Virus record (IMG/VR): IMGVR_UViG_3300032321_000377
Span: 1-61,325 of that record
Strand: one strand, 5' to 3'
DNA: 61,325 nt
From: a virus
Lineage: Duplodnaviria > Caudoviricetes
Below are positions 121 to 57,212 of the stretch, piece by piece (the stretch's first letter is position 1; every line of letters starts with the position of its first letter). Made by a program: the position numbers and the translations under genes. The notes beneath the pieces are model-generated. The model saw only the letters and a program-made list of their open reading frames with translations, did not search any database and was not told the DNA's origin.

Positions 121-323
121 TGAAAGACCCATTTATTAACATGGACGAAGCAACAAAACATTTGATTGACTTTGCTTCTATTGCAACCGTACTAGGAACC
201 CTTGCAGATATGTTACCAGCTATTGCCGCTATTTTTACGATAGTCTGGACAGCTATCCGCATCTACGAGACCAAAACAGTACAAGGCTGGTTAGGAAGAA
301 ATAAAGATGCCATCAACAAGTAA
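120..323 (+). CDS. Small membrane protein (holin-like?)
   Basis: Hydrophobic stretch LPAIAAIFTIVWTAI. Start is coupled to the upstream stop. Confidence 0.65.
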   Translation: MKDPFINMDEATKHLIDFASIATVLGTLADMLPAIAAIFTIVWTAIRIYETKTVQGWLGRNKDAINK

Positions 324-654
324 AAAACAACACAACTTTATGGCAGCTATTGCGCACAGCCCAGCATTTGCAAAAAAAGTAGGAGTACCACAATCTGTGG
401 GTAAAGAGTTTAACCAAGCCGATAAAGGCAAAAAATTTAGTAAAGGTGGATCTATGAAACATGATGATATTAAACAAGACATGCCAATGATGAAGAAGGT
501 AGCTGGTATTGAAGCTACTAAAGTAGTTAATAAGCACGAAAAGAAAATGCACGGCATGGCTTCTGGTGGCAAAGTAAGCCAGCTAAATAAAGCTAACGGA
601 ATTGCTGTTAAAGGCAAGTCTAAGGGCACAATTATCAAAATGAAAGGCTGCTAA
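307..654 (+). CDS. Small Lys-rich GG-motif protein (putative internal virion protein)
   Basis: Contains FSKGGSM and MASGGKV. C-terminal tail NGIAVKGKSKG is shared with the next gene. Confidence 0.8.
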   Translation: MPSTSKKQHNFMAAIAHSPAFAKKVGVPQSVGKEFNQADKGKKFSKGGSMKHDDIKQDMPMMKKVAGIEATKVVNKHEKKMHGMASGGKVSQLNKANGIAVKGKSKGTIIKMKGC

Positions 655-656
655 TC

Positions 657-932
657 ATGATGGCCCCAAGCAAACGGGTAGCAAAAAAAGTTACCAAAGA
701 AATGGAATATGACTACAAGACTGGCAAAAAATCTTTTGCTGGGTCTACTGCTAAAAAAGACGCACATGCTGAAAAAGAAGGCAAGCGGGTAGCTAAAGAT
801 TTGGCTTACGATAAGTCAAAGAAAATGGCTAGTGGTGGCAAGGTTGCCCAGCTTAATAAGGCTAACGGTATTGCAGTAAAAGGTAAGTCTAAAGGTACTA
901 ACATTAAGATGAAGCATGGCGGAAAGTGCTAA
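657..932 (+). CDS. Small Lys-rich GG-motif protein
   Basis: MASGGKVAQLNKANGIAVKGKSKGT is nearly identical to the tail of 307..654. Confidence 0.8.
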   Translation: MMAPSKRVAKKVTKEMEYDYKTGKKSFAGSTAKKDAHAEKEGKRVAKDLAYDKSKKMASGGKVAQLNKANGIAVKGKSKGTNIKMKHGGKC

Positions 933-935
933 ATC

Positions 936-1175
936 ATGGCTAAAAACGGGTACGACCAAACTTACGAAGATGACCGCAAAGAAAACGAAGAGACTCGTGC
1001 TTTAGTTAAGAAAGCGGTTATGGCTCCTATTAATGCGGTTAAGCCGAAAGAAACTAAAGCTGACACGGGCGAAACTACTAATCCTATGGGCGATAAATAT
1101 GCTAAAGGCGGTTCAGTTAAATCCGCATCAGCACGTGCTGACGGTATTGCTATTCGTGGTAAGACAAGAGCGTAA
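936..1175 (+). CDS. Small GG-motif protein
   Basis: Ends YAKGGSVKSASARADGIAIRGKTRA. Confidence 0.8.
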   Translation: MAKNGYDQTYEDDRKENEETRALVKKAVMAPINAVKPKETKADTGETTNPMGDKYAKGGSVKSASARADGIAIRGKTRA

Positions 1176-1177
1176 GC

Positions 1178-1477
1178 ATGTTTGATTACTTAGACCCCGC
1201 CGGCTCTATTGCCAACAAGTCTGCAGGTGTTCCTAAGACGGGTGTAACTACGTCTGCGGATCCACAAAACGCTACTGATATGGTTGCTAGTCGTGTTCCT
1301 GGATCTAGTGGTGGTTCTATGTCCCAAGACTTTGCAAACATGAATACGGGTAAAGGCGAAACTGAAGATGAGCGGAAGAAAAGAATAGCCGAACGAGGAT
1401 ACAAAAAGGGTGGTAAGGTTAAATCCGCATCAGCCAGAGCCGATGGTTGCTGCATTAGAGGGAAGACAAGAGCATGA
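1178..1477 (+). CDS. Small GG-motif protein
   Basis: Ends YKKGGKVKSASARADGCCIRGKTRA. Confidence 0.8.
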   Translation: MFDYLDPAGSIANKSAGVPKTGVTTSADPQNATDMVASRVPGSSGGSMSQDFANMNTGKGETEDERKKRIAERGYKKGGKVKSASARADGCCIRGKTRA

Positions 1478-1725
1478 GACCAAGTCGTGGAATGGGCGCT
1501 ATTATGCCCTCTAAAATGGGTCGTGGCGTCGTAAAAGAACGTCGTGACAATACCGATTTTACCCAGTATGCTGAAGGTGGTAAAATTGGGCTATATGAAA
1601 ACATTCATAAAAAGCAAGCACGTATTAAAGCTGGCTCTGGTGAAAAGATGCGTAAGCCTGGGTCTAAAGGTGCGCCTAGCAAAGCGGACTTTATTAAATC
1701 TGCTAAAACAGTGAAGAAAAAATAA
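1474..1725 (+). CDS. Small basic GG-motif protein
   Basis: Contains YAEGGKIGLYENIH. ATGA overlap with the upstream gene. Confidence 0.8.
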   Translation: MRPSRGMGAIMPSKMGRGVVKERRDNTDFTQYAEGGKIGLYENIHKKQARIKAGSGEKMRKPGSKGAPSKADFIKSAKTVKKK

Positions 1726-4575: not shown

Positions 4576-5007
4576 ATGGCAATTACCCAAGCAATGGCAA
4601 CATCATTCAAAGTCCAACTTTTGAATGGCGAGCAAAACTTTTCAGCAAACACTTTTAAATTAGCCCTGTATACCAGCTCAGCTACTTTAAATGAGAATAC
4701 AACTGCATATTCTGCAAGCAATGAAGTGCCTTCAACAGGTAACTACAGTGCTGGCGGCAATACTTTAGCGGTTAGCGTAACCCCAACAAATACTGGAAAC
4801 GTAGCCTTTATCTCGTTTACCAATACTACTTGGTCGAATGCAACTATTACCGCTAATGGCGCTTTGATCTATAACAGCACTAATGCTAATGCAGCCGTTG
4901 CTGTACTATCTTTTGGTGGTGATAAGACTTCAACCAACGGTACGTTCGCAGTGAACTTCCCGACAGCAGATGCAAGCAGCGCTATTATCCGTTTGACCGC
5001 TAGTTAA
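4576..5007 (+). CDS. Tail structural protein
   Basis: SD AGGAG. Beta-rich Asn/Thr/Ala protein (FKLALYT..GNYSAGG..ALIYN) immediately before the fibre gene. Confidence 0.65.
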   Translation: MAITQAMATSFKVQLLNGEQNFSANTFKLALYTSSATLNENTTAYSASNEVPSTGNYSAGGNTLAVSVTPTNTGNVAFISFTNTTWSNATITANGALIYNSTNANAAVAVLSFGGDKTSTNGTFAVNFPTADASSAIIRLTAS

Positions 5008-5020
5008 TTAGGGAGGCCGT

Positions 5021-7177
5021 ATGGCTTTAGTTCTAAAAGATAGGGTCAAAGAATCCAGCTCTAGCACTGGTACTGGGAGTATTACGCTTGGCGGAGCCAT
5101 TCCTGGCTATCAAACGTTTAATGCTGCTATAGCTAATGGTTCTACTGTTTACTACTGTATTCACAACTTAGCTGTTGGGTATGATACCGAGTGGGAAGTT
5201 GGTCTTGGTACGTTTACAGCTCCAGCTACATTAGCTAGAACTACAATTCTTTCCTCATCTAATGCAGGATCGGCAGTTAATTTTACTGCAGGCGCTAATG
5301 GGCTTGAGGTATTTGTTACTCAACCAGCAGAACAAGCACTGTATACCAATCAAGCTACAGGGTTAGTTGAATCATCTGGTAATGGAGCAAACAGCATTTC
5401 TTTCGTTGCTGTTACTTCTAATTTATTTACTGGTAATGCCTCAGCTTTAACTACTATTAATGCTTCTAATATCTCTAGTGGAACCATAGACAACGCTCGT
5501 ACTACAGCTGCTTCCGCTAACGGGGCTTCTACTATTGTCCTGCGAGATGCTAACGGGTCTTTTGCAGGGAATGTAATCACAGGAACAACAGGAACCTTTA
5601 CAAATATTTCTGGTAACGGCACTTCTTTAACCGCAATTAATGCCTCTAACATCTCAAGTGGCACAATTGGTAATGCTTACACCACAGCCAACGCTTCTAA
5701 TGGGGCTGCTACGATTGTCTTGCGTGGAGCATCTGGCGAGTTTGCTGCGGGTGCAATAACAGGGGCTTCTTTCTCTGGTAACGGGGTAGCTCTAACAGCT
5801 ATTAATGCCTCAAACATTAGTTCAGGAACTTTAGATAATGCTAGAACAACGGCAGCTACAGCTAATGGTGCTTCCACTATCGTGCTTCGTGATGCTAACG
5901 GCTCATTTGCTGGAAACGTAATAACAGGTACTACTGGAACCTTTACTTCTGTGTCTGGTAACGGGGTAGCTCTAACAGCTATTAACGCATCCAATATTAG
6001 TTCAGGAACCATAGACAACGCCAGAACAACAGCTTCTTCTTCCAACGGAGCTAGTACTATCGTTGCTAGAGACTCTAACGGCAGCTTCTCAGCTAATGTG
6101 GGTACGTTTACTTCTATTTCAGGTAATGCAACTTCCATTACAAACATTAACGCCTCTAACATTACTAGCGGCACAATCAATAACGCCTACACAACAGCCT
6201 CTTCTTCTAACGGAGCCTCTACGATTGTTCTTCGAGGTACTTCTGGTGAGTTTGCTGCAGGTGTAATTACCGCAGATGGTTCAGCTATTTCAGCTATTAA
6301 CGCCTCAAACATCTCTAGTGGAACTGTAAATACAGCCCGCCTTGGTTCTGGTACAGCAAACTCTACTACTTATTTAGCAGGTGATTCAACTTGGCAAGCT
6401 ATATCAGTACCAGCATCTCCAATTCCAGCGGGTTCCGTAATGCTGTTTTATCAAGCTGCAGCACCTTCTGGATGGACACAAGTCACTACGGTTGGTTTAA
6501 ATGATTCTGCATTAAGAATTGTTACTGGCACTGGTGGAACAACTGGCGGTACAAGTGCATTTAGCGCAGTATTTACTAACCAAACCCCAACAGGGACTGT
6601 AAGCACAACTACTGCTAACACAACTGCAACAATGGTGTCTTACACTCCAGCAGGTACATTATCAGTTACTGTGGGTGCAGGAACTTTGGCGGCTGGTAAT
6701 GGTACTTTGGCAGCTAGTAATGGTACTTTAGCAGCTACAGCTGGTTCGTTGGCGGTAGGTGCTGGAACATTTGCGGTTGGAGCAACTACACTTTCTACTA
6801 CACAAATACCAAGCCACACTCATCCACAACCCGTTTCAGATAATAATGATGGCGGTAACAACCCAAGTTCCTTCCCTGGTACTGGCGGTGCTAGAGGAAC
6901 AAATTACCCTAATAATACTGGTGGCGGTGGTTCACATACGCACGGCCTTACTGGCGCTCCAAGTATTTCTGGAACTCCAGGACTTTCTGGTTCTGTATCT
7001 CTTACTGGCTCTGTATCACTTTCTGGTAGCCCAAGCGTAACTGGTCAATCATTTACTGGTACTGCGGCAACTTTGACACAAAACGCCCACAACCATACTG
7101 CTTCAAGTTCATTTACTGGTAGTGCTTTAACTTTAAATGTTAAATATGTTGATATTATTATATGTTCTAAAAACTAA
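5021..7177 (+). CDS. Tail fibre protein with internal repeats and collar-like C-terminal domain
   Basis: LKDRVKE N-terminus, six INASNI(S/T)SGT repeats, PAGSVMLFYQAAAPSGW collar motif, HTH/HNH motifs in the tip. Confidence 0.85.
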   Translation: MALVLKDRVKESSSSTGTGSITLGGAIPGYQTFNAAIANGSTVYYCIHNLAVGYDTEWEVGLGTFTAPATLARTTILSSSNAGSAVNFTAGANGLEVFVTQPAEQALYTNQATGLVESSGNGANSISFVAVTSNLFTGNASALTTINASNISSGTIDNARTTAASANGASTIVLRDANGSFAGNVITGTTGTFTNISGNGTSLTAINASNISSGTIGNAYTTANASNGAATIVLRGASGEFAAGAITGASFSGNGVALTAINASNISSGTLDNARTTAATANGASTIVLRDANGSFAGNVITGTTGTFTSVSGNGVALTAINASNISSGTIDNARTTASSSNGASTIVARDSNGSFSANVGTFTSISGNATSITNINASNITSGTINNAYTTASSSNGASTIVLRGTSGEFAAGVITADGSAISAINASNISSGTVNTARLGSGTANSTTYLAGDSTWQAISVPASPIPAGSVMLFYQAAAPSGWTQVTTVGLNDSALRIVTGTGGTTGGTSAFSAVFTNQTPTGTVSTTTANTTATMVSYTPAGTLSVTVGAGTLAAGNGTLAASNGTLAATAGSLAVGAGTFAVGATTLSTTQIPSHTHPQPVSDNNDGGNNPSSFPGTGGARGTNYPNNTGGGGSHTHGLTGAPSISGTPGLSGSVSLTGSVSLSGSPSVTGQSFTGTAATLTQNAHNHTASSSFTGSALTLNVKYVDIIICSKN
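5456..6325 (+). repeat. Tandem 50-60 aa coding repeats in the tail fibre
   Basis: Units begin near 5456, 5636, 5801, 5981, 6146 and 6296. Identical DNA tctggtaacggggtagctctaacagctattaa occurs near 5774 and 5954. Confidence 0.85.
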
Positions 7178-7189
7178 CTAGAGGAAAAA

Positions 7190-7510
7190 GTGAAACTAGA
7201 ATCTAAATCAAACTGTCCATTAAATAATTTTGAACCTTGTAAACTTTGGGAATGTGCTTGGTTTATTGAAATTAAAGGAAAACATCCGCAAACTGGAACA
7301 GATATAAATGACTGGGGATGTTCAATAGCTTGGCTTCCTGTAATGATGATCGAAAACAGTTTACAACAACGTCACACAGGTGCGGCAATAGAAAGTTTTA
7401 GAAATGAAATGGTAAAAGCAAACGAAATGTCACAAAAAGTTTTGCTTGAAACAGCAAAAGCAACACATAGTAGTAACGATGAACTTAAGTACATTGAGAG
7501 CAGCAAATGA
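7190..7510 (+). CDS. Cys-rich fibre-associated hypothetical protein
   Basis: CPL..C...CAWF...CSIAWLP followed by a coiled coil. SD GAGG, GTG start. Confidence 0.75.
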   Translation: MKLESKSNCPLNNFEPCKLWECAWFIEIKGKHPQTGTDINDWGCSIAWLPVMMIENSLQQRHTGAAIESFRNEMVKANEMSQKVLLETAKATHSSNDELKYIESSK

Positions 7511-7827
7511 ATTTAACAATTATTAATGAAGATAATGCCGTTTATTTAGATGGCTGGGCTTTGGCTGGATTAAATTTATCTACTTGTGGTATACCTGAAA
7601 ATGTTCATGCTTTGCAATGGAAAGTTAATCTTGGATGGATTGAATATAAAAGTAATGCAGATTTTACAAAACCAGCAAATCAAGTAATTAATCAATTGCC
7701 TGATTGGGCTAATAACTGCGTAATTACTTTTAACAATCAAATTGCAGAAAATCAAGCGGTAGAAGCACAGGCAATAGAAATAGCATCAAGAAATCAACCA
7801 ACTTCCACTGGAACGCAAACATTATGA
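7507..7827 (+). CDS. Tail fibre assembly-like protein (paralog of 8143..8598 N-domain)
   Basis: LTII..D.AVY...VHALQW...GWIE...LP.WANN is shared with 8143..8598. Confidence 0.7.
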   Translation: MNLTIINEDNAVYLDGWALAGLNLSTCGIPENVHALQWKVNLGWIEYKSNADFTKPANQVINQLPDWANNCVITFNNQIAENQAVEAQAIEIASRNQPTSTGTQTL

Positions 7828-8129
7828 GCAATACCATGCCGCAAAGTAAAGTAATAAATGTGCCACCTGCGCATAGCCTTACTTATGATGGCGCTACTTT
7901 AAACATATTTCACGTAAATAAAGGTGAAGGTTTAGCTGCTCACGCCCATCTTTATGCTCATGCCACTATGTGTATGGCTGGTTCTTGCGCTGTTCGCAAA
8001 GAAGGCAAAGAAGTGATAATGAATAAAAATACTCAACCTATTAATTTGATTGCTATTGATTGGCATGAAATCGAAGCGTTGGAAGGTGGCACAGTATTTG
8101 CTAATTTGTTTGCAGAAGTCAAACGATAA
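7824..8129 (+). CDS. Cupin-fold protein
   Basis: GEGLAAHAHLYAH and WHEIEALEGGTVF match the two cupin His motifs. Confidence 0.7.
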   Translation: MSNTMPQSKVINVPPAHSLTYDGATLNIFHVNKGEGLAAHAHLYAHATMCMAGSCAVRKEGKEVIMNKNTQPINLIAIDWHEIEALEGGTVFANLFAEVKR

Positions 8130-8142
8130 AAAAGGAAATAAA

Positions 8143-8598
8143 ATGCGTTTAACTATTATTCCTATTGATGGCGCAGTTTATGAAAACGAAGTTTGTTATT
8201 CAGGTTTAACTTGGGATGGCACCCCAATTGATGTTCATGCACTTCAATGGCTTGATGTAAGTGGCTGGATTGAATTTAACGATGGCAAGTCAAACGAAAC
8301 CATTACAGAATTGCCACAATGGGCAAATAATGCAATGGATGCTTGGACCATAGCTAATACACCAGTACCACCTACACCCCCAACTGCTAATCAAAATAAA
8401 TTAAACGCATCACAAAAACTTTATGAAACCGATTGGACAACCATTCCTGATGTTTCTGATCTTACAAAAAGCAATCCATATTTAACTAATATTGATGAAT
8501 TTTTGACATACAGAAATGCAGTAAGACAATATGCAATTAATCCTATTGCTGGAAATATTGATTGGCCTACTGTTCCAACTGCAACTTGGTCCAAATAA
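8143..8598 (+). CDS. Tail fibre assembly chaperone
   Basis: SD AAGGA before ATG 8143. C-terminal TDWT..PD...YRNAVR...WP.VP resembles phage tail assembly chaperones. Confidence 0.75.
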   Translation: MRLTIIPIDGAVYENEVCYSGLTWDGTPIDVHALQWLDVSGWIEFNDGKSNETITELPQWANNAMDAWTIANTPVPPTPPTANQNKLNASQKLYETDWTTIPDVSDLTKSNPYLTNIDEFLTYRNAVRQYAINPIAGNIDWPTVPTATWSK

Positions 8599-15225: not shown

Positions 15226-16884
15226 ATGGCTGGTGGTGGCGTAGGCGAGGCAATGTTAATCGGGGCCGCAGTGGGTGCTACTGCTGGTGGAGCTGGTGCA
15301 GCTATTCAAGGCGGAGACCCTCTTAAAGGCGCCCTAATGGGCGGTGCTATGGGTGCCGTTGGTGGTGGACTAGGTGGCGCTATGGGTGGCGGAGCCGCTG
15401 CTGGAGCCGAGGCTGGTACTGTAGGTGCTACTACAGGTAGTACAACGGGAGCCGCTGCTGGAACTACGGCTGGAACTACGGCTGCTGCCCCAACTAGCGT
15501 GGGCCTTGGAGCTACTGGAGCTACAAATACAGGTATTGGTTCTATTTATGCGGGTGCTCCGCAAGGTATTGCTGGTGCTACAAATATTGGCGCTGGTATT
15601 AGCGGTGCTGGTACAGGTGGTGGTATGGGTGTAACTGCTGGTGGCGGTGCTCCTGTATTAGGTGGTATTGCTGCTCCTACTACGGCTGGTTCTATTGGCG
15701 GTGCTGGAGCTGGTTCTATTGGTGGCGCTGGTGCTGGTGTAACGGGCGGCGGAGCGGGAGCAGGCACTAACATTTTTGGTCAAACACTTGGACAACCTGG
15801 AGTACTTACTAATACTCAACTAGGTATGACCGCAGGAACCGCTGGTTTATCTGGTGCTATGCAAGCTGAACGCAGCAAATATGGTACGCCTACTGTTGCT
15901 CCGTATGAAGGACCTCTAAGCAAACTTAAATACGACCCAAACAAATTCACAGCTTCCGCCCCAACGTATGCTCCAGCTAGCGTTTATCGCCCTACTTATG
16001 CGGCTGAAGGCGGCATTATGAAACTAGCTCAAGGCGGTATGCCTGGTCCAGTTCAGCAAATGAGCCAAAATATGCTAGGTGGTCAAGGTAATATGTACCC
16101 ACAAAGCCAGCAAGAACATACCAATTTTGCTACTCCAACTCAGATGCCAGCAAGCGCTGAAGTAATCCAATCTGATTATGATGCTAAAACTAACCCATAT
16201 ACTGGCGTAATGATGGCTTCCGGGGGTATTGCTCATTATGATGAGGGTGGTCGTGCTTCAGAACTTTTCCCTACAGGTATTGCTAATGTATTAAAAGCAA
16301 TTAAAAAAGGGAAAAAAATTGATCCAGGCCAAGTCGAATCTGCTCAATTACAAGGGTTAACCCCAAGCGCCTATAACGATATTTATGGGCAAGGTATTCA
16401 GGCTCAGCAACAAATGCAAAGTCAAGGCATGGCTAAAGGTGGTTCTGCGGGTAATAAAAACATGATTGCTATTGATGATTATGTAGCTGCAGTAAAAGGT
16501 GGAGATGAGGCCTCTGTTATGGCTAAAGCTCAAGCTGGTGACTATAACGCTATGATTGCGCTTAATAAAGTACAAAATACCCCTAATCAAAATTATGCAA
16601 TGGGCGGGCATTTAGGTGGCTATTCTGATGGTGGTCGTATGTTAAAAGGTCCTGGCGATGGTATGTCTGACAATATCCCAGCTACGATTGCTGGTAAGCA
16701 AGCTGCCCGTTTGGCTGATGGCGAGTTTGTCGTACCTGCTGATGTTGTTAGTCATCTTGGTAACGGCTCTACTGATGCAGGGGCAAAGCAACTCTACGCA
16801 ATGATGAACCGAGTACGAAAAGCCCGCACAGGTAATCCAAAACAGGGTAAACAGATTAAACCAGCTAAATACATGGCTGCTTAA
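15226..16884 (+). CDS. Ejection (pilot/internal virion) protein 1
   Basis: SD AAGGAGG. Gly/Ala-rich hydrophobic N-terminus, multiple xxGG motifs, C-terminal GPGDGMSD..GEFV domain. Confidence 0.7.
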   Translation: MAGGGVGEAMLIGAAVGATAGGAGAAIQGGDPLKGALMGGAMGAVGGGLGGAMGGGAAAGAEAGTVGATTGSTTGAAAGTTAGTTAAAPTSVGLGATGATNTGIGSIYAGAPQGIAGATNIGAGISGAGTGGGMGVTAGGGAPVLGGIAAPTTAGSIGGAGAGSIGGAGAGVTGGGAGAGTNIFGQTLGQPGVLTNTQLGMTAGTAGLSGAMQAERSKYGTPTVAPYEGPLSKLKYDPNKFTASAPTYAPASVYRPTYAAEGGIMKLAQGGMPGPVQQMSQNMLGGQGNMYPQSQQEHTNFATPTQMPASAEVIQSDYDAKTNPYTGVMMASGGIAHYDEGGRASELFPTGIANVLKAIKKGKKIDPGQVESAQLQGLTPSAYNDIYGQGIQAQQQMQSQGMAKGGSAGNKNMIAIDDYVAAVKGGDEASVMAKAQAGDYNAMIALNKVQNTPNQNYAMGGHLGGYSDGGRMLKGPGDGMSDNIPATIAGKQAARLADGEFVVPADVVSHLGNGSTDAGAKQLYAMMNRVRKARTGNPKQGKQIKPAKYMAA

Positions 16885-17297
16885 TGGAATTAAAGGTTCA
16901 ACCAGTAGGTGCGCAATATGTTCACCAGACATGGCCTTTAGTAGAAGACTTGTTTGTAAAAGCAAATAAGTATGATTCTGGAGACTATACGTTAGACCAG
17001 ATAAAGGGTTTACTGGCTAATGGTTCATGGGTATTATTAGTAGCAACGGATGAAGAAAATAAAGTTCATGGTGTGGCATCAGTAAGTTTTTACAATATGC
17101 CTAACTATCGTGTTGGATTTATTACTGCAATGGCTGGAAAAGCAATTGTGAATGAAGATGTATATGGACAGGTTTGTAGCTTCATAAAGGCGAATGGGGC
17201 TACACGAGTTCAGTGCGCTGCTAGGCATTCTGCAGCCAGACTATATAAGCAAGTTGGTATGGAAGAACGCCACATTATTATGGAAACTAAGCTATGA
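16884..17297 (+). CDS. GNAT-like protein in the ejection operon
   Basis: Alpha/beta pattern ending A.RLY...G. Position resembles T7 gp13-type genes. Confidence 0.5.
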   Translation: MELKVQPVGAQYVHQTWPLVEDLFVKANKYDSGDYTLDQIKGLLANGSWVLLVATDEENKVHGVASVSFYNMPNYRVGFITAMAGKAIVNEDVYGQVCSFIKANGATRVQCAARHSAARLYKQVGMEERHIIMETKL

Positions 17298-19738
17298 GTA
17301 TCTTAAGATATAAACAAAAACTGTTTGCCGATGGCGGCGTTCTTAGAGCAGGTGGTGGTTCTAGTGGTGGGGGTGGTTCTAGCCAACCTCAACAAAACAC
17401 TACAGTTAATACTAATATTCCTGAGTACGCACGTCCCTATGTAGAGACAATGTTGGGTACTGCCCAGCAACAGATTTATAACTACGACTCTAGCGGTAAC
17501 GTAACTGGATTTAAACCCTACGTTCCTTATGGCGCTACTGTTGATGCAAACGGTAATATTACTAATACTGCCCAAGAACAAGCTGCTGCATCGGTTGCTC
17601 CATTTAGCCCATTACAACAAACATCTTTTTACAATGCTGGTAATTTAGGGCTTCCTGGTCAATACAACACAGGTACGGGTTATGCTGCTATGGGTGGTAT
17701 GGGCGCAGCTAACGTTGCAAATCGTGCGGCTAATGCTGGTAATCAATACAACATGATGGCAACAAACCCATACGCTACACAAGCATTCATGTCGCCTTAT
17801 ATTCAATCCGCATTACAACCACAATTACAAGAAATGAATCGTCAGTATGATATTACTGGTGGTCAAATGCAGGCTAAGGCAGTTGGTCAAGGCGCTTTCG
17901 GCGGTAATCGTGCTGCATTAGAACAAGCTGAAAACCAACGTAATAAAAATATTGCTATGAACCAAGCGATTGGTACTGGTTATCAAAATGCTTTCCAAGC
18001 TGCTCAACAAGCTCAGCAATATGGTGCTAACTTAGGTATGCAAGGTTATGGCACAGCACTTCAAGGTACAGGTCAACTAACTAGCGCTGGTACAGCTTTA
18101 GCTAATATCGGTAGTGCTCAGCTGCAAGGTCAGCAAGGCATTATTGGTTTACAGAACCAAATGGGCGGTCAGCAACAGACTCAGCAGCAGAATATGGTTA
18201 ACCAAGCGATGCAGAACTACGCTATGCAGCAGCAATATCCGCAGCAACAGCTTTCGTTTATGTCTGGTCTGACCCGTGGTTTGCCTATGCAAACTGCCAC
18301 TACACAGTCTTATCAAGCCGCTCCTTCCGCTATCTCTCAAATTTCTGGTCTCGGCTTAACAGGTGCTGCGGCTTATGGCTTGATGAAGAAAGAAGGCGGT
18401 GTTATTAAGTCTTATGCGCAAGGTGGCAATGTAGACATGGATCCTGATGGAGCCGATTTAGACAATCCACAAGGTTTTGTAAGCGGCGGTATTGCACAAG
18501 CTATTACTAATAGGGTTCGTATGAACCCTGATGGCTACTCTAAACCAATGATTGATAAAGGTACTAAGAGTGGTCTTGTTGATGACATCGTAGGTCTTGC
18601 TGCTATTCAAGAGAAGAATAAGAACGAGAAAGAGCGTCAGGCTCAAGCTGCTATGATGCAGCCGAAACCACCGACTGTTAAAGATCAGATTCTAGCCGAG
18701 CGTGCTGCGCTAGACCAGCAACGTGGTATTGAGATGGCTCAAAGCAACCTACCTACAGAATATGCAGGTGGCGGCATTATTGCTTTTGACGAAGGTGGTG
18801 ATGTAAGTGGTGGGTATAGCGAACTAGGTATCCCTATGGTTACTCCTTCTAACATGGGGAATTTAGCTACTATTACTCCAGGTAGTCCAGAAGCGTTGCT
18901 AGCTAACAAACAGATTACCCAAGAACAATTTGTTAAAATGAAAAGTAATGAAGCTGGTCCTACCGCCGCTGCCCCCGCTGCTAAACCTGAAACAGGTATT
19001 AAGATTCTTGGACCAAGTACACCAGCTACTAAACCCGCTACTGGTTTAGAAAAACTTACTGGCGCTCCCGACCAAAAAATTGATGCAAGCGGTTATGAGG
19101 GTATCGATTCTCTTATCAAACAACTTACTGGCGATCTAAAAGCTGGTGAAAAAGAAAGTAAAGATGCTCGTAAAGAAGCTAAGCTGATGGCTATGTTGGG
19201 TGCGGGTCTTGGTATTATGGGCGGCACTTCTCCATATGCTGGAGTTAACTTTAAAGGTGCTATGCCAGCACTCCAAGGCTACCAAGAAGAAATGCGTGGT
19301 ATCCGTTCCGACGAAGCTAAGCGTATTGGTCAAGTTGCTGCACTCAACCTTAAGGGTGTTGAACTCAAACAAGAACTTAAGAAATTGGGTATCAGCGAGA
19401 AACACTACAACGACTGGCGTGATGTTTACTTGGCTAAGGCTAACCGTCCAAGCGGTACTGCAGGTATGGGTTCTGTATCTAGTTCCGTTGTTCAAGCCGA
19501 ACTTAATAATTTGGAAGGTTATAAAGCTAATCCTGCTAGTGCCCCATTCTTTAAGCAGTTACCCCAAGATGCTCAGATTGCTTTAACTAAGACTAAGCCT
19601 GGTACAGAGTCTTATAATAGAAGCATGGAACTGTTCAATCAGTATGGTAATCAATACGTTCAAGGTAGACTAAATACGATGCGATCTTACGGTGCTAAAC
19701 AGTACCCAGGCGTTGCATCAGCTATGATTGAACCTTAA
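17294..19738 (+). CDS. Ejection protein 2
   Basis: Gln/Ala/Gly-rich helical protein, GAFGG.R motif, two hydrophobic segments, several xxGG motifs. Confidence 0.7.
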   Translation: MSILRYKQKLFADGGVLRAGGGSSGGGGSSQPQQNTTVNTNIPEYARPYVETMLGTAQQQIYNYDSSGNVTGFKPYVPYGATVDANGNITNTAQEQAAASVAPFSPLQQTSFYNAGNLGLPGQYNTGTGYAAMGGMGAANVANRAANAGNQYNMMATNPYATQAFMSPYIQSALQPQLQEMNRQYDITGGQMQAKAVGQGAFGGNRAALEQAENQRNKNIAMNQAIGTGYQNAFQAAQQAQQYGANLGMQGYGTALQGTGQLTSAGTALANIGSAQLQGQQGIIGLQNQMGGQQQTQQQNMVNQAMQNYAMQQQYPQQQLSFMSGLTRGLPMQTATTQSYQAAPSAISQISGLGLTGAAAYGLMKKEGGVIKSYAQGGNVDMDPDGADLDNPQGFVSGGIAQAITNRVRMNPDGYSKPMIDKGTKSGLVDDIVGLAAIQEKNKNEKERQAQAAMMQPKPPTVKDQILAERAALDQQRGIEMAQSNLPTEYAGGGIIAFDEGGDVSGGYSELGIPMVTPSNMGNLATITPGSPEALLANKQITQEQFVKMKSNEAGPTAAAPAAKPETGIKILGPSTPATKPATGLEKLTGAPDQKIDASGYEGIDSLIKQLTGDLKAGEKESKDARKEAKLMAMLGAGLGIMGGTSPYAGVNFKGAMPALQGYQEEMRGIRSDEAKRIGQVAALNLKGVELKQELKKLGISEKHYNDWRDVYLAKANRPSGTAGMGSVSSSVVQAELNNLEGYKANPASAPFFKQLPQDAQIALTKTKPGTESYNRSMELFNQYGNQYVQGRLNTMRSYGAKQYPGVASAMIEP

Positions 19739-19747
19739 GGAGCGTTT

Positions 19748-22700
19748 ATGCCACGGGTAGAAATTCCGGGAGTAGGGATTGTTAATTTCCCTGACAATAT
19801 GCCGCAAGATGAGATCATGACTCGTGCAGAGTCAATGCAAGCTCAGGCAAAAACACCACTTCTTAATCCTAAAGATTTACCTGCTTCTGAATTACTTAAA
19901 GGTGGTTTTTCTCGTGGTTTAGAAGGTCTTAAAGGTACAGCCTTTGATTTAATCCCTGCATTGGGTGGTTCTTTATTAGGTAAAGATGCTTACGCCAAAG
20001 AGCAACTACAAGAATATCAACAACGTATGGCTGCAGTTGAAGCAGAAAGTCCAACTGCATACAAGTCTTATAAAGATATTGGTGGGATTGGTGATGCTAT
20101 TGGATTTGGTGCAGAAACTCTTGGCGAGCTTGGTCCTGACCTTTTGTCATTTATTGGTGGCGCCGGACTTGGCGCACAGATAGGAAAACGAGTTGCTAAA
20201 AAAGGTGTAGAAGAAGCACTTCAAGCAGGTGCCGCTAAACAAGGCGCTAAACTAGGCTCTACAATCGGCTTAACTAGTGCATCAATGGCAACTAACGTGC
20301 CAGACGTATTCCAAAGTATCTACCAAGACACAGGCACACTACAACCTGGTATTGCTTTAACTATTGGTCCAATCGTAGGTATGCTAGATACGTACTTACC
20401 TGGTCGTATTCTTAAGCAATTAGGTCCTGAAGGCAAACAAATTCTTGCTGGTCAACTTTTAGATAAGTCCACGGTTGTACCTACCACTTGGAAAAAAGCC
20501 TTTACAGGGGAAATTCTTAAAACTACTGGCGGCGAAGCGCTAACTGAAGGCACGCAACAAGCCTTGCAAATAGCTGCGTCCCAAATTGCTGGTGATAAAA
20601 AAGGTTTTTTTGACCCGCAAAATATTGATAGCATTATTACCGCTTCACTAAAAGGCGCTATCGGCGGTGGCACACTTGGTGCTCCTACAGCCGCAATAGA
20701 AGCAGGCCGTAAAAAACAAGAATTTGCACAACTTCAAGTATTGCAGCAGCAAGAAGCTGAAAAGCAACGTGAGGAACAAGAACAAAAAGATTTACAAGAA
20801 TTGACTCGTCAGCAAACAGCTACTGGTGATTTGTTTGGTCAAGAAGTACCACAAGGTCCTGGCATCCCATCTACCACCGTAGCTGAAAGAGAACGTGCTG
20901 CTGACCCTGTTGGCGCAGCTATTAGCGATTTGGCTACGCAATATGCAAGCACTAGATCCGATATAGAACGTGGGGCTATAGAAGAAAAATTAAAACGTAT
21001 TAGCGATTCTTTACCTGCTCAATCGCACGAGAAGCAGATGCTTTTAGATTTGCTTGGGCCTTTACTGGGATACACTCCTGGCAAAGCCTACCCTACACAG
21101 TCTATTGATACAGCGCCGATTTCAGTTGACCAGCAAGGTGTTGCTAGAACTGCACAACAAGCTGAGGCAGAACGTACTACACCACAACAAGTTGAAGGAT
21201 ACCAAGCTGACTTGTTCCCACAAGAACTAGATTTAGCAGAAGCTCAAGCTCAAGCACAGGGTTTACCAGCAAACGTAGACCAAGCACTAGCTGGTCCTGC
21301 GCAAGCGCCTGCGCAATTTAAAACAATTTTGGATGCTCCTTCTTTACAAGGAACTGGTCTCAAACCACAATCTGGTTTCTTTAAAAAACTTCTTAACAAA
21401 GATTTAACAAACCCAGAAGACCAAGCGGCAGTACGTAATATACTTGTACAAGTTAAACAAAATCCAAACATAGCCGATTCGACTAAACAAGCCATCGAGT
21501 CTCTTGCTATGCAAGCCTTTGCTACTTTAGGTCAGCAAGCTAACATGGTAGGCCCTCGTGGCGGCATAAGAAGGGATGTAAATTATGGAAGAGTTCAGCC
21601 TAGACCTGCCGATCAAGCAAGTGGAGCAGGCGTTTCAGTTCCTGTGCAGCAAGTACCAGACGTTACCGAAGGAGCTGGAGCACTTGAGCGACCAGGATTG
21701 GTACCAGCTGGAGACATTACTAACGATGTTGGAAACAGAGAAGAAGTACAGCCAAATACATTAGCCGAGGAACAAAATGCGATACAACCTGAATTGGCTG
21801 CGCCGCAAGTGGAAGGAGAGCCTGCAACTACGGAAGGCCCTGCTGCTGGAATTACTGAAGGAGTTGGTGAAGTGGCTCCTGTGGCACTCGCTGAGCCTGC
21901 TGTACAAGCTGCCCCTGCCGAAGAAGTGGCGCCAGAGGTTGTTCCTGAAGTTGCTAAAGAGAAGCTAAGCAGAGCACAAAAAAGGTTAATAGAAGAGAAT
22001 TTACTAGAACTTAAAGCGGAAAGACGGTTAACAAAAGACGCTGAACTTATAAAAATACTTGACGAAGAGATTGCTAATACTGAAGCAGACCTTAAAGCGA
22101 GTAAATACCAAGTTGGTGAAGGCGCAGGTAACTTCACAGGTGACGTAACTAATCTAGCAAAAGACTTACGTGCCGCCCTAAATAAAATGGGGTTAAACAA
22201 AGTAGCTTTAAACTTAGAGAAAGTACTGTTTGATAAAGACGGAAACCCTGTTCAAGGTTTTTACAATAATCGACTAATCCAAGTTGCTTTAAATGCAACT
22301 AAGCTAGGGTATACCCTTGACCATGAAGCACTCCACGCTATGCGTGAACTTGGTTTCTTCTCCCCTAGCGATTGGGGGATGTTAAGTAATATGGCTAGAA
22401 ACACTTGGATGAAGCAGTATGGTATTGCAGCTAAATATCCAGAGCTAACCAAAGAAGAACAAATCGAAGAAGCTGTTGCCGAAGCCTTTGCAAACTTCCA
22501 ACAACAAGCGCCACAAACCCAGTCATTGATGACGAAAGTAATAAACTCCTTGCGTAGGCTCGGTAATTTCCTACGGGGTTATGGTTTCCAAGTTGCTGAG
22601 GATATTCTTGGTAAAGCTGCTAGTGGGCAGTTAGCTAAAGATCGTGCCGAAGTTATTGCTCGTTTTGATGACTATTTAGATACGCACCCTAGCTCCGAAG

Positions 22701-25522
22701 TTAAATATCAAGTAGCTGAGCAACGTTCTGTATTTACAGGCATGGATCGGGTTATTCGTGACATCCCTAACCTAAACGATTCTCAGAAAGCCGCAATCAG
22801 TGAAGGTGTTAAACGTGCTGGCGGCGCAGCAAAATCGGCTATCTTATCTTTATTACCTATGCACGCTTTGGGCGAAATAGCTAATGAGGTATTCCCTGGT
22901 CTTGGTTCTAGATTTAATCAGCTTATCAATGAGCGTAGTGGTTACCAAGATAACTTGAACCGTGGCACTGATGGTGTTATTGAAGAAGCTAAGAAAGCTA
23001 TTAAAGCTCGTCCTGAACAACGTGAGGCTTACAACAGAGTTGTTAATGAGAGCACTGTTAACGAAGTCGATCCTTCAGCTAAAGAAAACCGTAAGAAGTA
23101 TGAAAACGACCCCGACAAACTTAAGGCTTTTGATAAACTCCATGCCGAATACAACAAACTAGATAAAGTTTGGAAAGACTTGTATGTCACTATGCGTGGT
23201 GGCTACAAGCAGATGTATGAAGAAGTTAAAAAAGCCATTACTACTCGTATTGATGAAACTGATCTAGATGCAGCCACAAAGAAAAGCGTTAAGGATAGCG
23301 TTTTAGCTAAGCTGGCTGATAAAGGCATGATTGAGCCATACTTTGGCTTAGGTCGTGAAGGTCAATACTGGTTAGCCGCAGACTATAAAGATAAATCTGG
23401 TCAACAGCAATATACCGTAGAGGCATTTAAGTCTGACTATGAGCGCAAGACTCGTATGGAACAGTTGCAAAAGATGGGCGCTACTCGTATTGAACCATAC
23501 GCTAACGTAGCCGAAGTTAACTATCGTCGTGCCCCTACAGGCTCATTTGTTAATAGCGTACTAAACATTTTAGAGACAAACAAACCAAAAGATGGCCCTG
23601 CGGCTGAACGGTTTGAAAAAGCTATTGATGAGATGATGCGTCTATTCTTGACTACATTACCTGAGACTGCCTTTGCACAGTCATTCCAAAAACGTAAAGG
23701 TACTGCTGGTTTTATGGAAGATACAATTGGTGTGTTTGAGCGTAAGATGCGTAATACCGCTCATCAAGTGGCTAACATGGTCTACAACCCTAAATTGACT
23801 GGGGTAGTAGATACGATGCGTGAGCAAACAGTTACGGCAGGCAAGCTCGGAAAAGGAAACGCTTTAGAGAAAGAATACTTAGGCGAGTTTGAAAAGCATT
23901 TAGGTTATGTACTCAGCCCAACTAAGAATGACATCGGAAGCATCCTAACTTCCGCAGCGTTTACCTATACTCTTGGTTTTAACTTATCTTCTGCGTTAGT
24001 TAACATGGCTAACATACCAATGATTGTGGCTCCATATCTTAAGGGTAAGTATGCCGAAGCAGGTGTGGCCCGTGCTATTGGTGATGCTACTAAGTTATTT
24101 ACTGGTAGTGGATTAAAGACCAACATGCCTGTAATCGGTGCTGATGGTAGAACTACTGGTATGCGTGTAATGCCGTCCATTACTAACTATGCACCTGATT
24201 CTGAAATGGGTAAGCGTTATGCTACTTTAATTAGAATCGGCAACGAACAAGGGCAGTTCAATCGTTCCCAGCTGTATGAAATTATTAACGGCGACACCCG
24301 TACAGGTGTAATGGCTAAGTTTAATGCTCTGTCTGGCTGGATGTTCCACCATGGCGAGCGTATGAACCGTGAAGTTACTATGGTTGCAACTTACAACCTT
24401 GAGCTAGACCGTCTGATGAAAGATAAACCAAAAGGTTTAAACGAAACGGATTCTAAAGCATTTGATACACAAGCAGAAACTCAAGCAGCTAACACCGCTA
24501 TCTATACAACTGAGTTAACAAACGGTGGTATCTCCGCAGCTGCGGCCCCACGTATTGCGCAGAACTCAATTGGTAAGATGTTCTTCATGTACAAACGCTA
24601 TGGTATTTCTATGTATTACATGATGTTCAAGACTGCTAAAGAAGCCCTTAAAGGCGAAACTAAAGAAGCTCGTCAAGCCGCATTTAGACAACTTGGCGGA
24701 ATTGTCGGTATGTCTGCATTGATGGCTGGTGCACAGGGCATCCCAATGTTTGGTGCTTTATCTTTAGTCTACAGCTTGTTTACAGATGATGACGAAGATG
24801 ATTTAGATGCGGTAACTCAGAAGGCTTTGGGTGACTTCCTCTATAAAGGTCCTGTTGAATACGCAACTAACCTAGCTATTGCTGGTCGTATTACTTTGAA
24901 TGACTTGATTATTCGTGATGCTCCTAAGGGTAGCGCATCAACTTTCTCTCAGCAGTTAGCCCAAGCTCTAGGTGGGCCTGTAGTGGGTGTAGCCGATAGG
25001 ATACAACGTGGTTATAGTAAGTTTAATGAGGGTAATATTGCACGTGCTATGGAAGATCTTCCACCTTCTGCGATTGCTAACGCATTCAAAGCATACCGCT
25101 ATGCCACCGAAGGTACTAAGACCTTGCGTGGTGATCCTATAACAGGTGAGGTAAGCCTGTATAACTCCGTAGCTCAAGCACTTGGCTTTGCCCCTGCCGA
25201 TTACACCCGCCAGCTTGAAATCAATGCCCGTGAAAAAGGTATTGACAAGACTGTTAATACCCAAGCTAGCAAACAAAAACAAAAGTATTACATTGCTAAG
25301 CGTGAGGGCGATCTTGACGGCATGAATAATGCTAAAGAGAAGTTACTTGAAATTGGTGCTAAGCATCCTGGCTTAGGAATTACTCAAGGCACTGTTGCAG
25401 ACGTACTTAATCGTTCTATAAAAGCGCAAGAACGTGCCACTAAAGAGATGATTAACGGTGTTCGATACAACAAGAAGCGCCTCAAAGAAGTCCAAGACAG
25501 TATGGCTGAGTACGAAGACTAA
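19748..25522 (+). CDS. Giant ejection / polyvalent protein (1924 aa) with HExxH metallopeptidase-like domain
   Basis: Last gene of the structural arm. DHEALH...EEAVAE zincin-like motif; YFGLGREGQY resembles the PLxRFG motif. Confidence 0.75.
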   Translation: MPRVEIPGVGIVNFPDNMPQDEIMTRAESMQAQAKTPLLNPKDLPASELLKGGFSRGLEGLKGTAFDLIPALGGSLLGKDAYAKEQLQEYQQRMAAVEAESPTAYKSYKDIGGIGDAIGFGAETLGELGPDLLSFIGGAGLGAQIGKRVAKKGVEEALQAGAAKQGAKLGSTIGLTSASMATNVPDVFQSIYQDTGTLQPGIALTIGPIVGMLDTYLPGRILKQLGPEGKQILAGQLLDKSTVVPTTWKKAFTGEILKTTGGEALTEGTQQALQIAASQIAGDKKGFFDPQNIDSIITASLKGAIGGGTLGAPTAAIEAGRKKQEFAQLQVLQQQEAEKQREEQEQKDLQELTRQQTATGDLFGQEVPQGPGIPSTTVAERERAADPVGAAISDLATQYASTRSDIERGAIEEKLKRISDSLPAQSHEKQMLLDLLGPLLGYTPGKAYPTQSIDTAPISVDQQGVARTAQQAEAERTTPQQVEGYQADLFPQELDLAEAQAQAQGLPANVDQALAGPAQAPAQFKTILDAPSLQGTGLKPQSGFFKKLLNKDLTNPEDQAAVRNILVQVKQNPNIADSTKQAIESLAMQAFATLGQQANMVGPRGGIRRDVNYGRVQPRPADQASGAGVSVPVQQVPDVTEGAGALERPGLVPAGDITNDVGNREEVQPNTLAEEQNAIQPELAAPQVEGEPATTEGPAAGITEGVGEVAPVALAEPAVQAAPAEEVAPEVVPEVAKEKLSRAQKRLIEENLLELKAERRLTKDAELIKILDEEIANTEADLKASKYQVGEGAGNFTGDVTNLAKDLRAALNKMGLNKVALNLEKVLFDKDGNPVQGFYNNRLIQVALNATKLGYTLDHEALHAMRELGFFSPSDWGMLSNMARNTWMKQYGIAAKYPELTKEEQIEEAVAEAFANFQQQAPQTQSLMTKVINSLRRLGNFLRGYGFQVAEDILGKAASGQLAKDRAEVIARFDDYLDTHPSSEVKYQVAEQRSVFTGMDRVIRDIPNLNDSQKAAISEGVKRAGGAAKSAILSLLPMHALGEIANEVFPGLGSRFNQLINERSGYQDNLNRGTDGVIEEAKKAIKARPEQREAYNRVVNESTVNEVDPSAKENRKKYENDPDKLKAFDKLHAEYNKLDKVWKDLYVTMRGGYKQMYEEVKKAITTRIDETDLDAATKKSVKDSVLAKLADKGMIEPYFGLGREGQYWLAADYKDKSGQQQYTVEAFKSDYERKTRMEQLQKMGATRIEPYANVAEVNYRRAPTGSFVNSVLNILETNKPKDGPAAERFEKAIDEMMRLFLTTLPETAFAQSFQKRKGTAGFMEDTIGVFERKMRNTAHQVANMVYNPKLTGVVDTMREQTVTAGKLGKGNALEKEYLGEFEKHLGYVLSPTKNDIGSILTSAAFTYTLGFNLSSALVNMANIPMIVAPYLKGKYAEAGVARAIGDATKLFTGSGLKTNMPVIGADGRTTGMRVMPSITNYAPDSEMGKRYATLIRIGNEQGQFNRSQLYEIINGDTRTGVMAKFNALSGWMFHHGERMNREVTMVATYNLELDRLMKDKPKGLNETDSKAFDTQAETQAANTAIYTTELTNGGISAAAAPRIAQNSIGKMFFMYKRYGISMYYMMFKTAKEALKGETKEARQAAFRQLGGIVGMSALMAGAQGIPMFGALSLVYSLFTDDDEDDLDAVTQKALGDFLYKGPVEYATNLAIAGRITLNDLIIRDAPKGSASTFSQQLAQALGGPVVGVADRIQRGYSKFNEGNIARAMEDLPPSAIANAFKAYRYATEGTKTLRGDPITGEVSLYNSVAQALGFAPADYTRQLEINAREKGIDKTVNTQASKQKQKYYIAKREGDLDGMNNAKEKLLEIGAKHPGLGITQGTVADVLNRSIKAQERATKEMINGVRYNKKRLKEVQDSMAEYED
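21585..21764 (+). CDS. Overprinted 59-aa helical protein in the +1 frame of the giant ejection gene
   Basis: MEEFSLDLPIKQVEQAFQFLCSKYQTLPKELEHLSDQDWYQLETLLTMLETEKKYSQIH*. AAGGGA upstream. The host frame here is a low-complexity linker. Confidence 0.6.
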   Translation: MEEFSLDLPIKQVEQAFQFLCSKYQTLPKELEHLSDQDWYQLETLLTMLETEKKYSQIH

Positions 25523-45786: not shown

Positions 45787-45796
45787 ATCATTCTCC

Positions 45797-45816
45797 TGTT
45801 AGTAATGTTACTAACC
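45797..45816. promoter_or_regulatory. Palindrome copy 4
   Basis: tGTTAGTAatgtTACTAACc; abuts the SD of the VWA gene. Confidence 0.85.
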
Positions 45817-45818
45817 GA

Positions 45819-46943: not shown

Positions 46944-46957
46944 TTTAATTTCCTTTT

Positions 46958-46977
46958 TGTTAGTAAAGTTACTACGG
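46958..46977. promoter_or_regulatory. Palindrome copy 5 (2 mismatches)
   Basis: tGTTAGTAaagtTACTAcg; just upstream of the ATPase SD. Confidence 0.7.
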
Positions 46978-47060
46978 GTTAGTGGTACTAGAGATACCTT
47001 TTCTTAAAACTCTAATCGTTACAGCGCCAGATACAGGGTGGAATACCACCCCATAACGTC

Positions 47061-50755: not shown

Positions 50756-50902
50756 ATGAGTTCTTGGCTAATTATTGTTACGGGGTTGATCTATGCCTAT
50801 ATTGCGATTGAGCAAGGATTCAAAGGTAACCTTGCTATGTGTATCTGCTACGCTTGTTATGCTGGCGCTAATGTGGGTCTGTATATGATGGCTACCAAAT
50901 GA
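50756..50902 (+). CDS. Small membrane protein (48 aa)
   Basis: SD AAGGAGG; MSSWLIIVTGLIYAYIAIEQ...ANVGLYMMATK*. Confidence 0.7.
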   Translation: MSSWLIIVTGLIYAYIAIEQGFKGNLAMCICYACYAGANVGLYMMATK

Positions 50903-57020: not shown

Positions 57021-57212
57021 TTGGACTATTTAGAATATTTGTTAAAGGAATACATCGACAGAATGGATTTCCTAAAGGGAGGACTATCCCAAGGCAATAT
57101 ACCAACAATAGAAGAGTACAGATACGTATGTGGTCAGATTCGAGGTCTCGAGGCTGCATGCGGAACAATTCAAGACCTCAAACAACGACTGGAGAACTCG
57201 GACAATGAGTGA
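57021..57212 (+). CDS. Small helical head-region protein
   Basis: SD AGGAG, TTG start; EYRY.CGQIRGL. Confidence 0.75.
   Translation: MDYLEYLLKEYIDRMDFLKGGLSQGNIPTIEEYRYVCGQIRGLEAACGTIQDLKQRLENSDNE

Follow-up and report, generated by a model that had tools for sequence, protein, structure and literature searches.

The virus record IMGVR_UViG_3300032321_000377 of IMG/VR (the window, that is, the whole stretch of 61,325 bases analysed here) comes from an uncultured short-tailed phage, with a completeness estimate of 97%. It raises the question of why one short motif, [FYM]xxGG, recurs in two ejection-type proteins, p1 (15226..16884, + strand, 552 aa) and p2 (17294..19738, + strand, 814 aa), and again in five small basic open reading frames (ORFs) of 115, 91, 79, 99 and 83 aa (307..1725, + strand). 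The first-pass annotation of this DNA had read the motif as a virion-wide cleavage or sorting code that would make these proteins polyproteins. We found that it is enriched, conserved in the families of both large proteins, positioned at module junctions and shared with tape-measure proteins. A possible explanation, which we favour tentatively, is that the motifs act as glycine-hinged docking strands where modules join in proteins that have to pass out of the virion by way of the tail channel.

The PhixxGG motif and its enrichment

All 13 strings that had been listed for p1 and p2 are present, and ten of them fit the strict pattern: MASGG, YDEGG, MAKGG, YAMGG and YSDGG at residues 330, 338, 402, 457 and 466 of p1, and FADGG, YAQGG, FVSGG, YAGGG and FDEGG at residues 11, 374, 395, 490 and 498 of p2. 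The other three are near-fits: AAEGGI belongs to YAAEGG, with Y at -4, KKEGGV to MKKEGG, with M at -4, and LAQGGM has L as its first residue. Seven further motifs (FSKGG, MASGG twice, MKHGG, YAKGG, YKKGG and YAEGG) lie in the small ORFs, and the earlier count of about 20 holds, with 17 strict motifs plus the three near-fits. The motifs are often doubled around a short hydrophobic stretch, in the form MAxGG-I-[AV]-x-[YF]-xxGG. This pairing had been recognized before, and only its spacing, put at 7-8 aa, has to be changed to 8-9 residues in the window, with peaks at 8, 9 and 11 across the families.

A glycine-rich composition had been named beforehand as part of what would refute the first reading, and it fails as a full account of the counts both in shuffles and in a test of isolated GG pairs. 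With each protein shuffled on its own, 24 motifs are observed in the 62 ORFs against 13.7 expected; p2 has 5 against 1.4 (P 0.007), the small ORFs 7 against about 0.5, and p1 5 against 2.2 (P 0.07), an expectation inflated by its N-terminal half with 34% Gly. F, Y or M stands at -3 of 16/36 isolated GG pairs in seven proteins (p1, p2 and the five small ORFs, a set chosen post hoc by the earlier reader) versus 5/80 in the other 55 ORFs (background frequency 0.096, binomial 6e-8, Fisher 3e-6). Compared with shuffles, the motif is 3.4 times as frequent in the p1 family (263 proteins) and 4.1 times as frequent in the p2 family (120 proteins); this excess measures conservation and not independent events, because the members of a family are related. 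Alanine is the commonest residue following Phi across these proteins. An origin of the motifs in a DNA repeat or a recombination junction was rejected, as no long DNA repeats common to the motif sites were seen, and selection therefore acts at the protein level. To judge from the sequence, we are dealing with genuine short linear elements under selection, of the form Phi-[A/S/K/D]-x-G-G (Phi = Y, F or M).

The same picture emerges along p1, in which residues 1-200 are Gly/Ala/Thr-rich (G 34%, A 23%), residues 240-470 bear the motifs and residues 466-552 form a C-terminal module. In an alignment of 20 sequences (the window protein and 19 homologues, 41-72% identical to it), nearly the whole C-terminal domain is invariant, and the stretches between motifs show large insertions and deletions. 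The motif pair YAAEGGIMKLAQGG (15997..16038, + strand, residues 258-271) has Y258, G262 and G263 invariant, and the double motif MASGGIAHYDEGG (16213..16251, + strand, residues 330-342), with the family consensus MAxGGIARYAxGG, has G333 invariant and G334, G341 and G342 conserved at 90% or more. MAKGG (16429..16443, + strand, residues 402-406) stands directly before a helical bundle at residues 412-450, and the pair YAMGGHLGGYSDGG (16594..16635, + strand, residues 457-470) opens the C-terminal module. The proposal that the motifs separate dissimilar segments is borne out by the p1 and p2 family alignments and by the related loci.

Alternative N-terminal leaders are also seen in p1 homologues, three of which (P0069, P0100 and P0115) carry an alternative extension of ~60 residues (...G.DTELVHM...E.KGLQ...GGSLT.NP.TGLVEAGF...). 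One homologue, from MinM2, is annotated as a 'calcium-binding protein', and RTX calcium-binding repeats were considered for this reason; they were rejected, as p1 has no Pfam match, HemolysinCabind included, and the motifs have neither the GxD nor the tandem nonamer arrangement of GGxGxDxUx repeats.

The GEFV module of p1 and of tape-measure proteins

The C-terminal module of p1, here called GEFV (16621..16881, + strand, residues 466-552), consists of YSDGG, GPGDGMSDNIPA, ARLADGEFVVPADVVSHLGNGS, a C-terminal helix and a basic tail. We define it by the succession PhixxGG, GxGxGxSDxI, 6-14 residues, [AS][DN]GE[FY]V, (L/I)GxG and a helix, over ~85 residues, and p1 has all of these elements. The coordinates first assigned to this region were right, with YSDGG at 16621-16635, GPGDGMSDNIPA at 16648-16683 and LADGEFVVPA at 16711-16740. 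In 262/263 family proteins the GxGxGxSDxI core is preceded, at a distance of up to 14 residues, by [FY]xxGG, and the motif is the fixed first element of the module. Cleavage of PhixxGG at or after the GG pair, which would turn fused ejection and tape-measure proteins into separate modules and which we regard as the main rival of docking strands, possible but rather doubtful, does not sit easily with this constancy, which is like that of a part of a fold.

A search with p1 450-552 reached, at E<=1e-3, the representatives of 10,196 clusters (50% identity), with 1,291 of them at <=1e-30, and the best 150 of the 10,196 are ~80% identical across the module despite belonging to separate 50% clusters. 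Against all ORFs of the window, a GEFV profile found p1 alone. No Pfam or NCBIfam model matches the module, a search against PDB sequences returned chance-level matches only, and literature searches found no published description of the module or of the junction motif, so both are apparently undescribed. GEFV is in this sense an abundant and unnamed module with ~80% identity between otherwise unrelated proteins.

This degree of identity bears on another account of the motifs, namely that they are preferred flexible glycine hinges between modules that have to unfold to thread a narrow channel, with no partner and no cleavage, the aromatic residue or Met serving to limit protease sensitivity or aggregation. 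The predicted coil at the motifs and the turnover of their copy number between homologues would suit such hinges, as would their occurrence between modules of any kind (SLT, NlpC/P60, helical units). However, neither the glycines and aromatics nor the hydrophobic residues between them vary, even in sequences with only 40-50% overall identity, and an 80% identity of GEFV across 50% clusters is far more constraint than hinges would need, and we consider this account unlikely.

The likeness of the p1 C-terminus to tape-measure proteins, noticed at first from its motifs, was confirmed by three matching PHROG tape-measure families (4e-4, 1.5e-3 and 9e-3), by tblastn and by pairwise comparison with the tape-measure protein of the Rhodococcus phage CoffeeBean (39% identity over 61 residues, E 5e-9). 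With the module as query, tblastn found 69 phage records, mostly annotated tape-measure genes (Mycobacterium 26, Pseudomonas 18, Rhodococcus 6). The CoffeeBean protein reads GYATGGYVTGPGTGTSDSIMARLSNGEYV and has a second motif, FANGG, further on, after the module; that of the Mycobacterium phage MiniMac has GYAAGGLLRGPGNGTSDSILARLSDGEFV directly after an NlpC/P60 domain, with motifs flanking the module; and that of the Pseudomonas phage MP22 has FASGGHVRGPGTSTSDSIPARLSDWEYV after a Gly/Ala-rich stretch. All three keep the order of the p1 module, with PhiAxGG followed by GPGxGxSDSIxARLSxGE[FY]V. Among 11 deposited instances, 7 have a strict Phi-A-x-GG just upstream, and the other four have KATGG, LRKGG, YYACGGG or none. 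The module is internal in the tape-measure proteins, ~140-290 residues from the end, whereas it is terminal in p1; where an extension follows the p1-type module, a motif lies within the next 25 residues in 6/6 cases. In one protein of Siphoviridae sp. ctpbd312 (L117), two GEFV-type cores stand in tandem (...HDGDYVMDADVVAALGDGS... and ...ADGEYVFPASFVTALGGGD...).

p1 shares this one module with tape-measure proteins but is no tape-measure protein, because both the domain test and the gene-context test fail. It matches no Pfam family at E<=0.01, and its C-terminus none at E<=10. The curated tape-measure domains TMP_2, TMP_3, PhageMin_Tail and Tape_meas_lam_C were not found in p1, unlike in MP22, which served as the positive control of the search (TMP_3, 2e-64). 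In a long-tail gene context, a tail-tube gene, G/GT chaperones upstream and distal tail genes downstream would be expected, and Pfam and PHROGs gave no tail-tube match; p1 lies instead among ejection-type genes, in a genome with SU10-type adaptor genes. Two 62-kb phages, Caulobacter phage GB2A (L004) and DSL-LC04 (L031), have proteins annotated as 'tail length tape measure protein' in which the GEFV module is terminal and downstream of which large 'DNA transfer' or SLT proteins are encoded. These look like p1-type ejection proteins, and the annotation probably stems from the shared module. Channel-forming tape-measure proteins and the ejection proteins of short-tailed phages have been compared so far by function only, and GEFV constitutes a sequence link between them.

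Module joints in p2, the ejection block and the small ORFs

p2 is a fusion of p2N (~residues 1-362) and p2C (~401-814). In 25 related loci, the corresponding region forms two ORFs in 15, one ORF in 8 and is undetermined in 2, and the break falls at the window's motif cluster 364-399. This junction linker, MKKEGGVIKSYAQGG...FVSGG (18383..18490, + strand, residues 364-399), corresponds to the position at which a stop codon or Peptidase_S74 is found in relatives, and no variation is seen among 63 sequences at its residues G368, G369, Y374, G377, G378, G398 and G399. Further on, the double motif YAGGGIIAFDEGG (18761..18799, + strand, residues 490-502), preceded by a conserved QSNLPTE, has A491, G493, G494, I495 and A497 invariant in 17 and then in 63 sequences. 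The hydrophobic residues between the two GG pairs (GGIVAF, GGIARY) are conserved in 99/120 p2-family proteins, and the p2C proteins of split relatives show (M/Y)AxGGIVAF in all eleven printed and the second xxGG in all but L012. Extra motif copies occur in p2 relatives, for example HFEGGGS and MSYADGGEIDSDGIARFQEGG. The FADGG near the p2 start (17324..17338, + strand), rightly listed at first, is not conserved, being found in 2/17 aligned sequences (window p2 and P0313). It is part of a leader that L008 and L013 have as well, one among several that alternate at the p2 N-terminus.

The ends of the split p2N proteins are of three kinds: a motif-bearing tail in 5 loci, a tail that has lost the motif in L013, and Peptidase_S74, an intramolecular-chaperone domain, in 9 loci. 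Of the motif tails, that of L008 ends in ...MNKGGT*, those of L025 and L029 run on for 16 residues after FAKGG and for 20 after MKKGG, and two are near-fits. Peptidase_S74 was matched by Pfam in the two loci tested, L014 (5e-8, 6866-8215) and L018 (2.5e-7, 4855-6108), and was assigned in the remaining seven by near-identical printed C-termini or equal ORF length. Its presence at the p2N end implies that one of the ejection genes encodes a fibre-like protein that forms trimers and cleaves itself. By sequence, the motifs mark module joints, at the p2 split site, at extensions following GEFV and at the flanks of the module in tape-measure proteins, and they may be used as a rule for dividing hard-to-annotate proteins into modules.

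These joints also speak for cutting at the motifs. The motifs are at module junctions, as the short conserved sites of a polyprotein would be, the fused p2 differs from its split relatives by a motif-laden linker, the self-cleaving Peptidase_S74 occupies the same junction in 9 related loci, and the p2N of L008 ends one residue past GG. However, the other split p2N proteins run 16-20 residues or more past GG, L013 has lost the motif altogether, and cuts in the small ORFs would free basic tails of 20-60 residues that have no evident use.

In the p2C of L008 (3882-5933) and L014 (8218-10146), the two tested, a lytic transglycosylase domain (SLT) follows the double motif; at this position the window p2 has a variable Pro/Ala-rich linker and no hydrolase domain. 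The neighbourhood of SLT here and of NlpC/P60 in MiniMac, together with the location of the module after Gly/Ala-rich hydrophobic stretches in p1, MP22 and lambda, would agree with a role in the host, in which motifs and GEFV module bind, after ejection, a conserved envelope component such as peptidoglycan, the membrane interface or a periplasmic protein. Colicin boxes in disordered translocation domains offer a model for such motifs. We find this quite improbable: the hosts of module-bearing phages range from mycobacteria to cyanobacteria and Caulobacter, which makes a shared host protein partner unlikely, and no similarity of GEFV to a known binding domain was found in Pfam, NCBIfam or the PDB sequence search.

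p1, a 137-aa ORF (16884..17297, + strand), p2 and p3 (19748..25522, + strand), a polyvalent ejection protein of 1924 aa, close the structural-gene block, and the neighbourhood of p1 also includes a 725-aa virion protein. The order p1, 137-aa ORF, p2 (or p2N and p2C), p3 is kept in 25/25 related loci as far as the fragments extend, with p1 or both upstream genes off the fragment in three and p3 in seven. Consecutive large genes that end the structural module, in an order kept among relatives, are what is expected of a podovirus ejection block. p2 weakly matches phrog_4287 'DNA ejection protein' (E 3.6e-5).

The 137-aa ORF is present between p1 and p2 in 22/22 loci with both neighbours in view, with 135-138 aa in relatives. 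It has no Pfam match and is GNAT acetyltransferase-like by language-model features only (0.91-0.95). p1 homologues frequently begin M[AS]GGG, and with an acetyltransferase-like neighbour an N-terminal acylation of the ejection protein may be conceivable. Literature searches found no proteomic data on this phage or its relatives.

The rest of the genome includes a large terminase, a portal and an HK97/Mu-type capsid protein (Pfam and PHROGs), a lysis block (PHROGs) and two SU10-adaptor-like genes (1725-2675 and 3650-4558), each of which matches part of Pfam SU10_adaptor (profile positions 41-192 and 1-130). A weakly co-chaperonin GroES-like ORF (57130-57612) lies between portal and head genes (phrog_3188 8e-10; Pfam Cpn10 0.016, below cutoff). 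No close deposited phage was found for the window genome. Metagenomic relatives are numerous: 8000/8000 scored candidates match p1 at E<=1e-3 and 1858/8000 match p2, and for the adaptor gene there are at least 599 pattern matches in IMG/VR, of which 581 were confirmed.

In the small ORFs the motifs open paralogous tails, MASGGKVxQLNKANGIAVKGKSKG (twice) and Y[AK]KGGxVKSASARADG..IRGKTRA (twice). At the DNA level, 556-644 and 825-913 are 79% identical, and 1104-1176 and 1406-1478 are 71% identical. Across 56 related loci, where ORFs were called crudely (ATG starts only, >=35 aa), the motif is present in 134/229 small ORFs upstream of the adaptor gene, a typical tail being [YFM]KxGGKVxSASxRADG[CI]x[IV][RK]GKT[RK]. 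That these tails are a shortened GEFV module was rejected (hhalign probability 0.8%, E 0.067). The first small ORF opens with a conserved MPSxSKKQxxFMAA...AKKVG, which also opens longer PHROG 'virion structural proteins'.

Proposed docking strands, possible cleavage and known systems

The hydrophobic residues between the GG pairs are conserved and the motif is fixed in the GEFV module, and for these reasons we favour a strand over a bare cleavage site. From such observations we infer a docking function with a partner. Each motif would be a short hydrophobic strand between glycine hinges, unstructured in the free monomer, that could pair with a strand of another copy, of another ejection protein or of the channel wall. 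Pairing would take place twice, first during stacking of the proteins inside the head and later during their reassembly into a trans-envelope conduit, and motifs at the joints would permit folded modules to be threaded one by one. A model for this is the 'molecular tape' of T7 gp16-N, whose residues stitch together disordered ejection-protein regions, as described in a review (PMC8954989).

Structure prediction fits this proposal weakly. AlphaFold2 gave p1 240-552 (67 alignment rows) a mean pLDDT of 60, with motifs and GEFV core as coil below 50, the helical bundle 412-450 at 87-97 and the last helix at ~85. Whole p2 (63 rows) had a mean of 48.5, with both motif clusters as low-confidence coil between helices. 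The helices next to the motif regions in the two predictions reached 83-97, and the predicted coil of the motifs would be compatible with folding on binding. This is weak evidence for disorder, given how shallow the alignments are and how little they vary within the module. The predicted complex of three copies of p1 452-552 had a score of 0.01, which says nothing for or against self-association.

Several points weigh against docking strands. p3 belongs to the ejection proteins too, yet not one motif is seen in it where 1.4 are expected from shuffles. The absence of profile similarity between small ORFs and GEFV means that the part they share may be five residues only. Low pLDDT can reflect the little depth and the near-identity of the alignments, with their 67 and 63 rows, and not disorder. 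Furthermore, the junction position, the GG pair and the cleavage of lambda gpH fit cutting at the motif equally well.

A cut would call for an enzyme. The absence of a canonical prohead protease, noted at first, is confirmed, and Pfam and PHROGs show no prohead, JAB or papain-like peptidase among the 62 listed ORFs of the window. A cognate peptidase encoded in the genome is represented by putative leads only. One is the DUF2201_N protein (44608-45786, 3.2e-20), a putative metallopeptidase that also has a VWA-like domain; it is encoded next to an AAA ATPase, in a cassette of the early or replication region (44608-47960, - strand) that includes DUF3150 as well. Another is a DUF6782 match below cutoff (50899-51567, E 0.004). 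The third is HEALH at p3 residues 859-863 (22322-22336), a zincin-like candidate of which HExxH is kept in L005 and L006. As a known peptidase the p3 HExxH region was rejected, with no Pfam peptidase match and Atlas leads to LPD23 and LPD1 only (0.90). Zincin-like peptidases have been proposed to process polyvalent proteins, according to the account in PMC5512222. The p3 region, the DUF2201_N protein or a host enzyme could be the peptidase here, and gpK could be in lambdoid phages. p3 itself matches LPD39 (E 2.3e-15) and, over its C-terminal 700 residues, phrog_10089 'DarB-like' (E 1.2e-69), and its relatives exchange modules, with ART-PolyVal and LPD38 in L022.

Lambda gpH provides a known case of processing. 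As stated in the first-pass annotation, it carries [FY]AxGG...GEFV and is processed at its C-terminus; reading this end gives a Gly-rich hydrophobic stretch, FATGG, GEFVF...RIGVGNLYRLM and YATGG. The cut falls in the glycine-rich C-terminal region during tail assembly, its site and protease being given as unknown in the account consulted (PMC12617516), and residues ~690-817 are described as not resolved in cryo-EM (PMC12617516, PMC10721106). The C-terminal part, gpHC (~690-853), has the Gly-rich stretch, the motif and GEFV like p1, but unlike p1 it is without the GxGxGxSDxI core. Direct homology of p1 and gpH was rejected as not significant (BLASTP E 0.84; podovirus-family profile score reached by 113/2000 shuffles), and it is the tape-measure proteins of CoffeeBean, MiniMac and MP22 that bear out the likeness first claimed. 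What links gpH to p1 is limited to brief stretches that match the module of CoffeeBean (E 4e-4, 0.055) and to a weak phrog_3547 match at the same positions (0.14). A homology search from gpH 690-853 returned near-identical lambda-type proteins only, with no bridge to p1. The likeness of gpH to p1 appears weak, at the level of the motif.

A cut calculated after FATGG-737 would give 80.1 + 12.2 kDa against the reported ~78 + 14 kDa, which is close but not matching; the mass estimate of gpH* indicates ~residue 710. Lambda gpK has an NlpC/P60 domain (3.4e-13) and, below the Pfam cutoff, a partial Prok-JAB match (6e-5), and JAB peptidases have been predicted to act on lambda gpI, the cut falling at a C-terminal glycine (PMC1779556). 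Literature searches found no paper linking gpK to gpH, and the link is our own. We keep cleavage among the readings because the motifs lie at junctions, because S74 occupies the same p2 joint, and in view of the motif-laden p2 linker, the lambda gpH cut and the gpK domains. Its widest form would make PhiAxGG a cleavage signal at GG for deubiquitinase-like or zincin peptidases, common to tape-measure and ejection proteins and converting fused ejection proteins into working modules, with gpH cut to gpH* at FATGG-737 (or YATGG-782) by gpK, with its JAB and NlpC/P60; taken as a whole, this seems improbable to us. For lambda, the motif offers a candidate site for the open question of where gpH is cleaved.

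Viral polyproteins and ubiquitin-type xxGG cleavage sites have short motifs ending in GG at their junctions. The proteins studied here are like them in having such a motif at every module junction, and the window genome is unlike those systems in that neither a papain-like nor a JAB peptidase was found in it.

Docking strands, our preferred reading, lead to a comparison with the ejection proteins of short-tailed phages. Apart from phrog_4287, no sequence similarity is detectable between the window and T7 or P22, and literature searches found no description of a PhixxGG motif or GEFV module in either phage. The likeness lies in organization: gp14, gp15 and gp16 of T7 and gp7, gp20 and gp16 of P22, like p1-p3, are encoded by consecutive genes that end the structural block, they are large and partly disordered, as the proteins here are predicted to be, and the lytic transglycosylase in p2C of L008 and L014 is a further feature that relatives of the window share with them.

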